Source of the DNA: an uncultured archaeon
GTDB taxonomy: Archaea > Altiarchaeota > Altiarchaeia > IMC4 > QMZM01
Assembly: GCA_964549685.1 (NCBI GenBank)
Contig: CAZJVE010000020.1
Span: forward strand, 1 to 14,634
Length of the DNA stretch: 14,634 nt
Direction: 5' to 3'
Shown here: positions 8,207 through 14,634 of the stretch, piece by piece
Layout of the letters: each line of letters begins with the position of its first letter
Numbering within the stretch: the stretch's first letter is position 1
The notes under the pieces: model-generated
Told to the model about the DNA's origin: nothing
Database searches by the model: none
Seen by the model: the letters and a program-made list of their open reading frames with translations, nothing else
Translations under genes and position numbers: made by a program

Positions 8207-9232
8207 TCAATGAAAACTCGAGGCTCGCATTGCCGTGCCGTAAGCTTGATAGTATGTTCCTCTTTTGAGCATCCAAAATATTGAAACGAGGAGTTTCCTT
8301 GCCACCGCTACTATGGCAATCCGCTTCCCCCTCTTCTTTTCCAACTTTAGGTAGATATCTCTCATCCTGCCTGGGGACTTGATTGCCTTGTGAGCGGCCT
8401 GAACTAGTATCCATCTCATGAGACATCTTCCCTGCTTTGTTATTCTGCCATGTCTCAGAGTGTTGCCCGACTGGTAGACTCTTGGAACCAAACCAGCATA
8501 TGAGCATAACTTTTCGGGACTATGGAAACGATCCAAGTCGCCTATCTCACTCAGTAGGAGTACTGCTGAAAAAGGACCTATTCCTGGAGCAGACTGAATA
8601 ATGTCCATCCAGGGACATGCTCTTGCTCTTCTCTGGAGTTCTGTCTCTGTTAAGCCTATCCTCTGGTTCAGTTCGTCAATCAGTTCCAAGTCATGATCGA
8701 CGATCATACGACTGCTATCCCTCAACTCGATGCTCTCAAGCAGTTTCCTACCGCCTTTCCCAAACAAGTCCGAGTAATGGCTCTGTACACCCTCCCTTGC
8801 TAGTACTGCATGTATCCTGTTCTTCAGCGATGTCCGCTGTTTCACCAAGGATACACGATGCGAGACCAGGACCCTCATATCCCTTATGTTCTTATCTGGC
8901 ACGTATGACTCCGGAATCAGGTCTGCTCGCAGGAGATCGGCCAGTATCCTTGAGTCTATCTTGTCCGTCTTTATCTTCGCATCTGCTATCGCCTTTGTTT
9001 TCAAAGGGTGAGCGACTACAACATCAAAGCCGGCATCATCTAGGTAATCATAAATTGGAGTTGAGACAGACGAGGCCTCAACTACCACCTTAGAGTTCCC
9101 TTCAACCCTCTCAATCAGTTCGTCAAAGCCATCCTCTGTGTTGAGGAACCTGAGTTCATCCATCTTGTTACCTTTCTCGTTCAACATCGTTGCATAACAA
9201 AACCTTTTATGCACATCTACACCTACATACAT
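8207..9232 (-). CDS. IS110-family DEDD transposase/recombinase
   Basis: YVGVDVHK (D), VVVEAS (E), KTDKIDS (D,D), SAPGIG, SYAGLVPRVYQSG, GRITKQG, AVARKLL. ATG 9232 lies 6 nt after GGAGGTG. Confidence 0.96.
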   Translation of the reverse strand: MYVGVDVHKRFCYATMLNEKGNKMDELRFLNTEDGFDELIERVEGNSKVVVEASSVSTPIYDYLDDAGFDVVVAHPLKTKAIADAKIKTDKIDSRILADLLRADLIPESYVPDKNIRDMRVLVSHRVSLVKQRTSLKNRIHAVLAREGVQSHYSDLFGKGGRKLLESIELRDSSRMIVDHDLELIDELNQRIGLTETELQRRARACPWMDIIQSAPGIGPFSAVLLLSEIGDLDRFHSPEKLCSYAGLVPRVYQSGNTLRHGRITKQGRCLMRWILVQAAHKAIKSPGRMRDIYLKLEKKRGKRIAIVAVARKLLVSIFWMLKRGTYYQAYGTAMRASSFH

Positions 9233-9236
9233 TATT

Positions 9237-9283
9237 AACACCTCCTTGTTAGTTAACGCTCGATTAACTATTGAGGAGGTGTT
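9237..9283 (-). promoter_or_regulatory. Hairpin sequestering the transposase Shine-Dalgarno (copy 2)
   Basis: AACACCTCCT/AGGAGGTGTT 10-bp stem plus TAGTTAA/TTAACTA 7-bp stem. Confidence 0.7.
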
Positions 9284-11602: not shown

Positions 11603-12508
11603 TTACTGATGCTCATGCCTTCTCTTCAGCCTGTCGATGTCCCGGTGAGTATGCTCGTGTATGTGGAGGTGGACGTGTCCACCTTCTGTCTCGATGGTTC
11701 TTGTGAGATTTTTAATCGCCTCGTCAATGGACAGGGGTATGTCCCCCGTGCTATACCCAAAACAGGAAAGCACCTCGAAGAGTTGTGTAATTAACGGTAA
11801 CTCGAGATTTGCCTTCCACAACAGTTCCTTGTCGGTGAATATCTCCCGCGGGGTTCCCTCCCGGATTATCTTCCTGTCCAGGACGTAGACCCTGTCAGCA
11901 ATCTCTGCCACGGAATTAACGTCGTGCGTTGCGATTACTATCGTCTTTCCCTCCTTCTTCAGGGCCTTTATCAGGGCTATTATGTCGCGCTTGCTCCTGG
12001 GGTCGAGGTTGGAGAGGGGCTCGTCAAAGACGAGAATTCTCGGTTCCATGGAGAGTATGGTTGCTATTGACGCCTTCTTCTTCTCCCCGAAGGACAGGTT
12101 GTGGGGGCACCTCTCCCCGAGGTCCGGGAGGCCGACGCTCTCCAGTGCTGATGAAACTCTCCTTTTAACTTCCTTCTCAGGAAGCCCGAGGTTCATTGGA
12201 CCGAAAGCAACGTCATTGAACAAAGTGGTGGAGAAGAGCTGGTCGTCGGGGTCCTGGAACACAAGTCCTATATCCTTTATCAGTTCCCAGGTATCCTTTC
12301 CCTCGATGCTGCTGCCGAGAATCTCCACCACGCCATCCCCCCTGAGAATCCCGTTCAGATGCAACAAAAGGGTGGACTTCCCTGCGCCGTTTGGGCCGAG
12401 GACTGCTACTGACTCGCCTTCCTCTATCCCGAGGCTTATATTCCTGAGGGCCTCCGTACCGTCTGGATAAACATAGCTCAGGTTCTTTAATTCTATCGAT
12501 GCCGGCAT
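11603..12508 (-). CDS. cbiO: ECF transporter ATPase (CbiO/NikO) with His-rich C-terminal tail
   Basis: GPNGAGKST, FQDPDDQLF, LSFGEKKK, FDEP, ATHD; start at ATG 12508 directly after the cbiQ stop (12520 also possible). Confidence 0.92.
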   Translation of the reverse strand: MPASIELKNLSYVYPDGTEALRNISLGIEEGESVAVLGPNGAGKSTLLLHLNGILRGDGVVEILGSSIEGKDTWELIKDIGLVFQDPDDQLFSTTLFNDVAFGPMNLGLPEKEVKRRVSSALESVGLPDLGERCPHNLSFGEKKKASIATILSMEPRILVFDEPLSNLDPRSKRDIIALIKALKKEGKTIVIATHDVNSVAEIADRVYVLDRKIIREGTPREIFTDKELLWKANLELPLITQLFEVLSCFGYSTGDIPLSIDEAIKNLTRTIETEGGHVHLHIHEHTHRDIDRLKRRHEHQ

Positions 12509-12509
12509 T

Positions 12510-13220
12510 TTAGAGTACATGCAATGAAACTGCGAAAATTATGACTATAATTCCCTTCACATAGTCGACATTCTTAATCTCGAATTCGGCCAGGGAATTC
12601 ACGACCCCCGAATAGCCCCGGGAAATCATGGCCCCATAAACTCTCTGCGCTCTCTCATAGCTCCTCACGAACAGCATGGCAATTGAATTCCCGATTGTTA
12701 TCATCGTGCGCATATCCGTCCTCCCCTGAAACCCTCTTGCCTTTAACGAGGTGAACATCCTATGAATCTCATCAGCGAAGAGGAATATGTAGCGGTAAGT
12801 AAACTGGACTGTCTGAATCAATTTGTTCGGTACCCTGAGCTTTTCCATGGCCTTCAGCACCTGCTCGAATCTGGTTGTAGATAACATCGCAAGGGCAAGG
12901 AGTATCGCCGAAAATGCCCTTAGGGCAACCAGTGCCCCCTTCTCAACACCCTGGCTGGCGGTAATGGACAGGACAATGAAGATAAACAACACGAAGAGGA
13001 AAACCCACCTCATGCGCTCAAGAACAAAATTCAGCGGAATTCTTGAGATTAGAATGATGAGGAAGGATAGGATTAACCCTAAAGCTGCCGGAATCAAATC
13101 GTCCAGCAGTACTATCGAGAATATCAGAAGCAGGATGGATGTCAGTTTAACCCTCGGGTCCCACCTGCTCAATGGGCTTTCAATTCCTGCATACCTGTCA
13201 ATCTCATCTAGTTTAGGCAT
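12510..13220 (-). CDS. cbiQ: ECF transporter T component (CbiQ/NikQ)
   Basis: SPLSRWDPRVKL, FTYRYIF, LKARGF, LFVRSYERAQRVYGAMISRGY. Confidence 0.92.
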   Translation of the reverse strand: MPKLDEIDRYAGIESPLSRWDPRVKLTSILLLIFSIVLLDDLIPAALGLILSFLIILISRIPLNFVLERMRWVFLFVLFIFIVLSITASQGVEKGALVALRAFSAILLALAMLSTTRFEQVLKAMEKLRVPNKLIQTVQFTYRYIFLFADEIHRMFTSLKARGFQGRTDMRTMITIGNSIAMLFVRSYERAQRVYGAMISRGYSGVVNSLAEFEIKNVDYVKGIIVIIFAVSLHVL

Positions 13221-13674
13221 TCTTCTTTCTTGTTAGATAAAGCATCGCGATTCCTGCCAGTCCAAGGAGATAGCCGAGCCCCGCTATTATCCCTTGGTAG
13301 GGGGATAGTCCGGTTTCTCTTCTAATCCCTTCGCCTGCAGACTGCATTGATGTCATGTTAATAATCTCCTCGACTCTGTGACCGGGAAGGTCAGTAGATT
13401 CGATTTCGACTCTGTAGGTATCAGCTCCGATCTTCGGCGGGAAGCCGTATTCTCCCTTCTCGTCAGTAACGCCTTCAAGGTAGAATTCCTCGATGCCGTC
13501 TTTTATCGCATATATCCTGGCTGTTCCGTCTGCTATGGGCTTCCCTCCCCCGAACCAGGACTTCACCCTTATCTCCCCGATTCTGCTGCTTATATGCACT
13601 CTATGGGCAGCTGCCATGCCTGAAAGGATTAGTAATATGGTCAATGCTATCAAAAACTTTTGTCGAGTAGACAT
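13213..13674 (-). CDS. CbiL/NikL-like auxiliary protein of a Ni/Co ECF transporter; first codons are intron-derived
   Basis: Signal peptide followed by AH-R-V, FGGGKP, GVTDEKGEYGF, C-terminal TM IIAGLGYLLGLAGIA; adjacent to cbiQO. ATG 13674 lies inside intron domain VI. Confidence 0.75.
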   Translation of the reverse strand: MSTRQKFLIALTILLILSGMAAAHRVHISSRIGEIRVKSWFGGGKPIADGTARIYAIKDGIEEFYLEGVTDEKGEYGFPPKIGADTYRVEIESTDLPGHRVEEIINMTSMQSAGEGIRRETGLSPYQGIIAGLGYLLGLAGIAMLYLTRKKNA

Positions 13675-13760
13675 TTTCAACAATCCTCCTTATTTATTTT
13701 CATTTTGATTGCTTAATGCCCCTCACAGAACCGTGCTTGCGGTTTTCCCACACACGGCTC
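13662..13760 (-). ncRNA. Group II intron ribozyme domains V and VI
   Basis: DV 13760-13728 GAGCCGUGUGUGGGAAAACCGCAAGCACGGUUC (AGC triad, 2-nt bulge). DVI: GAGGGGCAU (13724-13716) pairs with AUGUCU[A]CUC; branch A at 13668, seventh nucleotide from the AC 3' end. Confidence 0.9.
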
Positions 13761-13775
13761 TTCAGCAACACATCC

Positions 13776-14634
13776 TCAGCACGAGGACAGGGCATAGGTG
13801 TTGTGATATATCCTTGGCGTAGGCAGAGGATTCCATTCCAGGAAGCGTAAATATTGCTCCCAGTTATAGCTCCTCTTCTGGCTCCGGCGGTTTATCCACT
13901 TATGGGCAAGTCTCTTTGTGCAGGCATAAAATTTCTGCAACTCCCTGAAGTTTCCGCTTATCCCATAGTATCGGTAGTGGCCTGTCAGCTTCATCTCAAG
14001 TATCCGCCACCATTCATCCATCTTTACCAGATTTCTGACTTTCCTCAACCACTGGTTCATCGCTTTCGTCTTCTGTCTGAACCTCTTAGTGCTGGTCTTC
14101 CGACCCAACCTGAACCTGCCTCCCCGGGTTTTACAGCAATAGTGTGTGAACCCAAGGAAGTCAAAAGTTGCCACTTTCCCTCTCTCACGTCGAGATTTCC
14201 ACCAGGTATTACGACCGAACTCTATTATCTGGCTCTTGCTCTCTGCAATCTCCAGCCCAAATCTCTCCAGCCTTTGCCTTAGCATTCCCTTGAATGCTGT
14301 CGCTTCATCACCATACTGAAAGCAAACTATAAAGTCATCAGCATAGCGTGTCAGCTGGGCAAAGCCTCTCAGTCCCTTCCTGACCTCATCTTCAAACCAT
14401 ATATCCAGTGCATAGTGAAGGTATATGTTAGCGAGTATTGGACTTAACACCCCACCCTGGGGTGTGCCTTTATCCGTCTCTATATACTTGCCTTCCTCCA
14501 TTATGCCCGCTCTCAGGAAGCGACCGATTATACTCAGGAAACTTGGGTCCACTATCCTTCGCTTCAAGCACATCATCAGCTGCTTGTGGTCTATGGTGTC
14601 AAAATAGCTCTTTATGTCCATATCCACAACCCAG
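13776..14634 (-). CDS. ltrA: Group II intron reverse transcriptase/maturase, N-terminus outside the window, no endonuclease domain
   Basis: WVVDMDIKSYFDTIDH, GTPQGGVLSPILANIYLH, RYADDF, FDFLGF, domain X GHYRYYG; ends shortly after RRSQKRS..W..PLP. Confidence 0.95.
   Translation of the reverse strand, partial: WVVDMDIKSYFDTIDHKQLMMCLKRRIVDPSFLSIIGRFLRAGIMEEGKYIETDKGTPQGGVLSPILANIYLHYALDIWFEDEVRKGLRGFAQLTRYADDFIVCFQYGDEATAFKGMLRQRLERFGLEIAESKSQIIEFGRNTWWKSRRERGKVATFDFLGFTHYCCKTRGGRFRLGRKTSTKRFRQKTKAMNQWLRKVRNLVKMDEWWRILEMKLTGHYRYYGISGNFRELQKFYACTKRLAHKWINRRSQKRSYNWEQYLRFLEWNPLPTPRIYHNTYALSSC

Follow-up and report, generated by a model that had tools for sequence, protein, structure and literature searches.

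The window analysed here, a 14,634-nt stretch of DNA that makes up an entire contig (C20) of the genome of an uncultured archaeon (G000; 27 contigs, 1.17 Mb), carries on its minus strand the 3' half of a group II intron, which interrupts a small NikL-like transporter gene at its start codon. This intron is probably a member of an endonuclease-lacking (En-minus), IIB-like lineage that homes to Shine-Dalgarno (SD) sequences together with start codons and supplies replacement initiation signals from its own domain VI (DVI), so that the host gene would be translatable without splicing. The earlier note on this DNA had described an intron-borne SD and start codon for the gene that the intron interrupts. 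The sequence confirms this observation and supports the interpretation given there, and none of the refuting conditions named in that note applies. Judged by comparison with related introns, this feature is not peculiar to that gene and characterises a whole intron lineage: the same layout of SD, spacer, AUG and tail recurs in 74 of 85 unique insertion sites and, together with compensatory changes in the distal stem of DVI, this indicates that the feature in the window exceeds chance.

The intron and its insertion site

The contig stops inside the reverse transcriptase (RT) open reading frame (ORF) of the intron, and the 5' half lies on another contig of the same genome (C19), whose final 55 nt are identical to the end of the window and over whose join the RT frame is unbroken. 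No second copy of the intron was found elsewhere in this 85%-complete genome. Contigs from two public runs, which may be the source samples, span positions 13000-14634 and continue for more than 3 kb further. On C19 the 5' exon ends in ...GGAGGTGTCGGGATGA, where the cbiM stop overlaps the ATG of the next gene, and is followed by GTGCGCCGAG, which opens with GTGCG. The GTGCG stands at position 3094 of locus L001, and the junction ATGA/GTGCG falls at the overlap of the cbiM stop and the nikL start, with the insertion point between the A of ATGA and the following A. This is the arrangement that had been anticipated from the 3' side, namely a 5' exon ending in ATGA and an intron opening with GUGYG. 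The empty site is preserved in a congeneric genome (G001), where it reads ATGA/AAAAGTTT (ATGA/AAAAGTTTTTGATAGCATTGAC) and encodes MKKFLIAL; the sequence ...GGAGGTGTCGGGATGAAAAAGTTTTTGATAGCATTGAC of that genome equals both exons joined exactly, and CbiM directly adjoins the gene there. The proposed original gene, ATG-A^AA-AAG-TTT with the intron inserted about 4 nt into the ORF, agrees with this allele. In contigs of four DNA runs there was no joint or loose end at 13661/13662 and no intron-less form, a result that is uninformative either way, since contigs drop rare variants.

The 3' exon (13213..13661, minus strand) is the interrupted gene without its first four nucleotides, the ATGA on C19. 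Its assignment to a NikL-like small transporter subunit relies on a match to NCBIfam NF058648 (NikL; 56.5 bits, under the cut-off of 100), on homologues of 149-160 aa, one of them annotated as a nickel transport protein, and on the operon context. The genes are ordered DUF4198, CbiM, intron, small NikL-like protein, CbiQ and ABC ATPase, which matches the K-M-L-Q-O order of operons for NikKMLQO-type energy-coupling factor transporters of nickel and cobalt. The gene is present in four of 41 related genomes, G000 itself included. One homologous product (P0121) is 95% identical, has 150 aa and begins with MKKFLIAL, and the seven intron-less homologues begin with MKKFLIAL, MRNIL, MKKIL, MRKTL, MKKIL, MKIKR and MKIKR. 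The MSTRQ start encoded by the intron is found in none of these seven, as the earlier note had expected.

The complete intron measures 1999 nt and has the hallmarks of group II: a GUGYG 5' end, a ribozyme with domains I-IV, domains V and VI, a bulged A, an AY 3' end (...GAC), an RT ORF and an EBS1-IBS1 pairing (exon- and intron-binding sites). Rfam RF02005 (group-II-D1D4-6) matches L001 3127-3414 with 102.4 bits (gathering threshold 49), and RF00029, which covers domains V and VI, matches 13762..13662 on the minus strand with 52.0 bits (gathering threshold 40; E 5.7e-08) and ends exactly at 13662. The RT has about 436 aa, of which 285 are encoded in the window (13776..14634, minus strand) before the contig end cuts the ORF, the rest being on C19. 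PF00078 matches both halves (E 6.7e-24 in the window), and TIGR04416 scores 208.9 bits, below its cut-off of 300 for a piece of 285 aa only; the full-length RT of a relative (L014) reaches 375.7 bits. No endonuclease (HNH/En) domain was matched in the RT by Pfam or NCBIfam, and the protein ends about 35 aa past the TIGR04416 match.

Domain V, the catalytic hairpin, occupies 13728..13762 (minus strand; model positions 1-36 in the RF00029 alignment), and is followed by an enlarged DVI at 13662..13724 (minus strand), delimited by the same alignment, by its fold and by the consensus structure of its relatives. The minimum free energy (MFE) fold reproduces what had been drawn from the letters alone: a basal helix GAGGGGCAUU/AAUGUCU(A)CUC, a distal stem AGCAAUC/GAUUGUU and an A-rich loop of 21 nt, with -14.1 kcal/mol, a z score of -3.7 and one of 200 shuffles equally good. 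The SD-like AAGGAGG (13685..13691, minus strand) lies with six of its nucleotides (AAGGAG, 13691-13686) in the loop, and its last G (13685) closes the distal stem. After a spacer of 10 nt, as previously counted, comes the AUG (13672..13674, minus strand), which is paired within the 3' strand of the basal helix and does belong to the branch-point stem. This AUG is 13 nt upstream of the 3' splice site and 4 nt ahead of the bulged branch-point A (13668, minus strand), which is 7 nt from the intron 3' end and unpaired in both the MFE and the consensus structures. The 3' splice site (13661..13662, minus strand; intron ...CGAC, exon AAAAG) is fixed by the end of the RF00029 match and by the empty site in G001, which agree with the position first proposed. 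The final 13 nt of the intron, AUG UCU ACU CGA C, run in frame into AA AAG UUU UUG of the exon, and the resulting ORF, with the N-terminus MSTRQKFLIAL that had been read before, has 153 codons. The DVI loop of the window's copy is 14 nt longer than that of the main type, being extended by an A/T-rich segment (AAAAUGAAAAUAAAUAA, 13692-13706, minus strand) that is unique among the DVIs seen and may be neutral or, the host being archaeal, TATA-like.

The lineage and its target sites

Relatives were collected with the RT through a genome scan (59 relatives at 58 loci) and a metagenome scan (the best 80 of 248 relatives). As these scans ignore DVI, the sample is not biased by the DVI feature. The examined set comprises 108 loci, that is, the window's intron, 27 genome loci with an RT identity of at least 57% and 80 metagenome loci; ten had no domain V by regular expression and five were cut at the 3' end, which left 93 loci whose 3' end is present, representing 85 unique sites. 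In 83 of these 85 an AUG precedes the predicted 3' splice site by 13 or 16 nt, and upstream of this AUG, within 20 nt, GGAGG occurs in 74 of 83, a 4-mer core in eight more and neither in one. The spacers between GGAGG and AUG measure 9 nt in 58 cases, 6 nt in ten, 5 nt in three and 10 nt in three. In the consensus fold of 34 distinct DVIs, eight of 16 pairs show compensatory changes, including five of the six pairs of the distal stem, and the GGAGG columns of the same alignment are nearly invariant. DVI occurs in three architectures of about 45-60, 69 and about 120 nt, in all of which the SD stands 5-10 nt before the AUG.

On the other side of the intron, most junctions fall at start sites. 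Among 62 mapped 5' junctions, 49 read ATGA, six ATGG, two TTGA, one GTGA and four something else, so that NTG plus purine accounts for 58, and the host's own GGAGG is found at -20 to -5 in 45 of the 62 (a 4-mer in 11 more). The first base of the 3' exon is A in 73 of the 85 unique sites. Where at least 150 nt of 3' exon are available (67 sites), in 56 sites the longest open frame is the one set by the DVI AUG (other frames, 3 and 8), and in 48 this frame has no stop for 48 codons or more (other frames, 2 and 5); 26 of these 48 ORFs have a hydrophobic, signal-peptide-like N-terminal segment. The DVI GGAGG and the target site go together: 57 of 58 copies at start codons carry it, vs none of four copies elsewhere.

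Target choice can be followed in domain I. The EBS1 loop reads GUU-CAU-NNN, with UCAU opposite AUGA, and CCAU opposite AUGG in four of six ATGG sites and in none of 49 ATGA sites. In the window, EBS1 (UCAUUC) pairs with GGAUGA, which bears out the expected complementarity to the start region. Copies that lie off target have an EBS1 that matches their own exon instead (EBS1/exon: UUGG/CCAA in L018, UCAAGG/CCUUGA in L140, CGCAGAAA/UUUCUGCG in L151 and CGUG/CGCG in L028). EBS2 is a single-stranded GAAAU-N6-GUG segment, and its pairings include UUUACC/GGUAAA (L086), AUCCUCC/GGAGGAU (L112), CUUCC/GGAAG (L130) and CACC/GGUG (window). Its complementarity to its own exon has a mean of 4.24, vs 3.79 +/- 0.09 for shuffled exons, and none of 2000 shuffles reaches the observed value. 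Most EBS2 segments pair with GG and bases downstream of it, at a spacing to IBS1 that varies from 0 to 3 nt. A role of EBS2 as a full anti-SD mimic was rejected as a general rule, as only some pair with GGAGG itself (L112, AUCCUCC). The complementarity of EBS2 and EBS1 indicates that the lineage reads the 3' part of the host SD and the AUG plus purine by base pairing, and so homes to the ribosome-binding site (RBS) and start codon.

From the perspective of their history, the SD and the AUG of DVI differ. Three outgroups, L151 (RT identity 60%), L053 (43%) and a Sinorhizobium meliloti plasmid intron, L152 (43.7%), have a DVI of 32-39 nt that lacks the SD hairpin, and none of them is at a start codon; an AUG is present in two of the three, at -13 in L053 and at -16 in L151. 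Because the AUG occurs there without an SD, it is probably an ancestral helix sequence, and the SD hairpin the derived part. In the RT tree the SD-bearing state extends over a clade of about 103 leaves (support 0.88), within which an 8-member sub-branch, the L151 group and L140 are nested sets without an exact GGAGG. The 8-member sub-branch (support 0.88) lies inside the ANME-1-type clade (0.999) and has GAAGG in place of GGAGG; six of its members have no GGAGG and two are not scorable, and the tail contains stops in two copies. Read across these copies, the comparison shows the putative SD to have decayed in introns gone from start codons.

The relatives come from ANME-1/Methanophagales, Syntrophoarchaeum, Omnitrophota, Elusimicrobiota, Clostridia and many bacterial phyla. 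One metagenome-assembled genome (MAG) contains six near-identical copies (L029-L032, L037, L040) and another four (L019-L022), each at the SD-ATGA site of a different gene. Several of these genes encode proteins with lipoprotein-like signal peptides, and the pattern suggests a recent proliferation through gene starts. Individual copies show further features. The 3' exon of L075 opens with GTTCTACTCGAC, which repeats the last 12 nt of the intron itself and may have been left behind by a previous or tandem insertion there. L014, an ANME-1 copy, sits on the TTG start of a gene with the N-terminus RYEIEVISPVHIGSGG..., which resembles that of a CRISPR RAMP-type protein.

Proposed translation from domain VI and competing explanations

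The proposed mechanism would run as follows. Insertion would sever the gene from its own SD and AUG, and the DVI hairpin would present GGAGG 5-10 nt upstream of the AUG in the basal helix as a substitute. A tail of 13 or 16 nt (1 mod 3) would take the place of the 4-nt ATGA and preserve the frame, so that in the window unspliced RNA would yield MSTRQ-KFLIAL... in place of MK-KFLIAL..., with positive charge retained before the signal-like segment. Ribosomes starting at the old host AUG would soon reach a stop: the ORF from the displaced host ATG ends after 11 or 36 codons in most copies and after 117 in the window's copy. The stop at 11 or 36 codons in the relatives may be a conserved early stop. 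The 117-codon ORF (C19, L001 3090-3443) crosses domains I-III. A 30S subunit bound at the DVI site would occlude both the branch A and the 3' splice site, so that initiation and branching would be mutually exclusive on any one RNA molecule. From the comparative evidence we infer that the DVI site would be used for translation, and that ribosome loading would compete with branching. In the host genome, an SD-like peak is found at -14 to -10 upstream of crude gene starts.

Several points weigh against translation from DVI. An SD-like 5-mer occurs at only 81 of 825 crude host gene starts. An RNA run containing window positions 12600-14634 was looked for and none was found, and the argument for DVI translation is a comparative one, drawn from the lineage as a whole. 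The AUG and the 13-nt tail lie in a structurally constrained DVI helix and recur in the SD-less outgroups L053 and L151, so that an in-frame AUG is by itself no evidence; likewise, with a single fixed geometry, being in frame at every site is automatic. In the ANME-1 type the SD is predicted to be fully paired in a helix of -33.8 kcal/mol, and this pairing would impede initiation. Intact downstream ORFs are no proof of tolerance, as many copies are near-identical and of recent origin; moreover, in 19 of the 67 3' exons the predicted frame has no ORF that reaches 48 codons. Finally, the class of copies outside start codons has four members only, which are interrelated, and the deep nodes of the RT tree are weak (support 0.05-0.67).

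Some of these observations fit other functions of the same sequences. The SD and AUG in DVI might serve the intron itself, with a ribosome that protects precursor or lariat RNA or that blocks branching as a switch, the protein of the 3' exon being incidental. The placement of the AUG in the helix that bears the branch A, at a distance of 4 nt from it, and the regulatory look of an SD sequestered in a strong helix in the ANME-1 type would suit such a role, and the parts consulted of one publication describe protection of group II intron RNA by ribosome association for Ll.LtrB (PMC3851717). We consider it unlikely, as it predicts neither the loss of the SD away from start codons, seen in the contrast of none of four with 57 of 58 copies and in the nested sub-branch without GGAGG, nor that both tail lengths, 13 and 16 nt, keep the host frame. 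It is less probable still that GGAGG...AUG in DVI is unread by ribosomes and acts as an internal mimic of the homing site, which would pair with EBS2 and EBS1 as a folding aid, in auto-inhibition or as a guide for reverse splicing. The DVI motif, GGAGG-N9-AUG, does resemble the target, GGAGG-N5-8-AUGA, and EBS1 contains CAU and EBS2 ends in CC; however, the DVI AUG is followed by U, whereas EBS1 reads A or G, and covariation-supported DVI helices already tie up both GGAGG and AUG. Nor does DVI covary with EBS1, as introns with CCAU (L096, L114, L117 and L131) keep AUGU and the retargeted L018 (EBS1 UUGG) keeps AUG.

The presence of the AUG before the SD hairpin arose (L053, L151) and the recent origin of many sampled copies could also be read as chance or hitch-hiking, that is, as a functionless A/G-rich insertion in DVI that happens to resemble an SD beside a structurally required AUG. 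This we regard as very improbable, given a GGAGG that is nearly invariant although the flanking stem covaries, a spacing confined to 5-10 nt across three DVI architectures of different length, and a strict association with start-codon sites. The provision of replacement initiation signals to the host gene is the explanation that we prefer.

The host start may in turn be used by the intron. In seven of seven ANME-1-type copies (L014, L018, L034, L075, L080, L099 and L134), the frame from the host start contains no stop over 576 nt, vs 7-14 stops in the other frames, and extends through domains I-III to the RT stop, 608-653 codons in all, with indels of 6 and 60 nt that keep the frame; database proteins of 601-653 aa fit such a read-through. 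Main-type copies have 1-12 stops in the host-start frame. The RT of the ANME-1 type may accordingly be translated from the host SD and AUG. More tentatively, these elements might be parts of a swap of signals, which at present we hold possible and somewhat doubtful: EBS1 (CAU, initiator-anticodon-like) and EBS2 (ending in CC and extending up to AUCCUCC, anti-SD-like) would read RBSs in DNA, and the intron would take over the host SD and AUG and give the DVI substitute in return; the ANME-1-type RT, of about 650 aa, would be made from the host start through domains I-III, and ribosome occupancy of DVI would decide between splicing and mobility on one side and host expression on the other.

Genomic context, known introns and significance

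Downstream of the interrupted gene, the operon continues on the minus strand (11603..13220) with cbiQ (12510-13220; PF02361, E 1e-33) and the ABC ATPase gene (11603-12520; PF00005, E 7.2e-27). A second mobile element on the contig is an IS110-family transposase ORF of 344 aa (8207-9241, minus strand; 266 bits with NF033542, whose cut-off is 140). The host is archaeal, as had been thought probable: S19e is present, and the bacterial L20 was not found in the 85%-complete genome.

The earlier note had referred to established bacterial lineages that specialise on translation start and stop signals. Such lineages exist, and the published one differs in kind from that of the window. According to the sections seen of PMC12584367, which summarises Michel et al. 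2007, the IIB1 (CL1) clade of start- and stop-codon introns (Avi.groEL, EcKTE56.groEL) has a 5'-subterminal insertion of 300-700 nt (subdomain Ia), an endonuclease-bearing CL1 RT, proteobacterial hosts and housekeeping genes as targets. Both groups occupy start or stop signals for translation in protein-coding genes. In the groEL case, the first base of the intron restores the broken signal, UAA becoming UAG (PMC12584367); in the window's lineage, an intron-borne start would stand in for the interrupted one. The same parts of that paper make no mention of an intron-borne SD and AUG for IIB1. In addition, the window's lineage has no large 5' insertion (the Rfam domain I model begins 33 nt in, and the stretch from domain I up to the RT start totals 574 nt), an En-minus RT of about 436 aa, archaeal and multi-phylum bacterial hosts, and targets that are often genes for secreted or membrane proteins. 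Of the four features of the IIB1 clade, the window's intron shares the insertion at a codon site and lacks three, namely subdomain Ia, the CL1/En RT and a proteobacterial host. As far as the published clade is described in those sections, the window's lineage is distinct from it.

Other classes offer partial parallels, again as described in the portions of the cited papers that were consulted. Group IIC introns insert after intrinsic terminators (PMC3001079), and IIC-attC introns carry outward-facing promoters (PMC4424553). They resemble the window's lineage in a choice of site that limits damage to host genes and, for IIC-attC, in expression signals that also serve the downstream host gene. 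They differ in that they find their sites by DNA or RNA structure (terminators, attC) and contribute a promoter, whereas the window's lineage would rely on EBS1 and EBS2 pairing to the SD and start codon and on translation signals in DVI. The En-minus, IIB-like classes D, E and F, with RmInt1 in class D/IIB3 (PMC4615759) and the IIE and IIF ribozymes (PMC3753933), share with it a small IIB-like ribozyme, EBS1 and EBS2 in domain I and an RT that is En-minus and about 420-440 aa long, but their DVI is short and lacks an SD hairpin, and their homing sites are insertion sequence (IS) elements or intergenic. Membership of class D was rejected, because the C-terminus of the window's RT, ...YLRFLEWNPLPTPRIYHNTYALSSC, is without LF[V/A]HW of the class D motif LX3AX3PXLF[V/A]HW (PMC4615759). 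By RT identity, the closest named plasmid relatives are at 51% (Cytobacillus and others) and 43.7% (S. meliloti L152, a 435-aa coding sequence whose identity with RmInt1 could not be shown); the base and 3' end of DVI, GUGAGGG...CUACUCGAC, are common to this S. meliloti intron and the window's lineage.

In the organellar introns aI1 and aI2 of yeast, the ORF of the intron-encoded protein is in frame with the upstream exon, an arrangement that is not known from bacterial or archaeal introns. The ANME-1-type sublineage is like these yeast introns in having a stop-free frame from the upstream exon into the RT, and the window's copy differs, as its frame ends after 117 codons.

Neither an SD or start codon in DVI nor an En-minus lineage that homes to an SD and ATG was found in the parts searched of the literature, including PMC12584367, PMC4028801, PMC4424553, PMC3552965, PMC3753933, PMC8919778, PMC12350094, PMC8643678 and PMC4615759; Michel et al. 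2007 (Biochimie) and Simon et al. 2008 (RNA) lie outside that scope and may bear on novelty. The start-site lineage is apparently undescribed so far.

From the perspective of their persistence, group II introns of bacteria and archaea are commonly viewed as surviving either by avoiding genes or by splicing sufficiently well. Landing on a translation start while carrying a spare one would represent a third strategy, under which expression of the host gene would not have to rely on splicing. If true, this would explain how a retroelement spreads through the starts of many genes, often those of secreted proteins, in archaea and in ten or more bacterial phyla, and would provide a natural example of direct competition between the ribosome and a branch-point helix. 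For annotation, it would mean that affected genes are called with wrong starts (MSTRQ...) or as broken. It would also offer a compact and portable design for targetron-type tools that insert without knocking out the gene.

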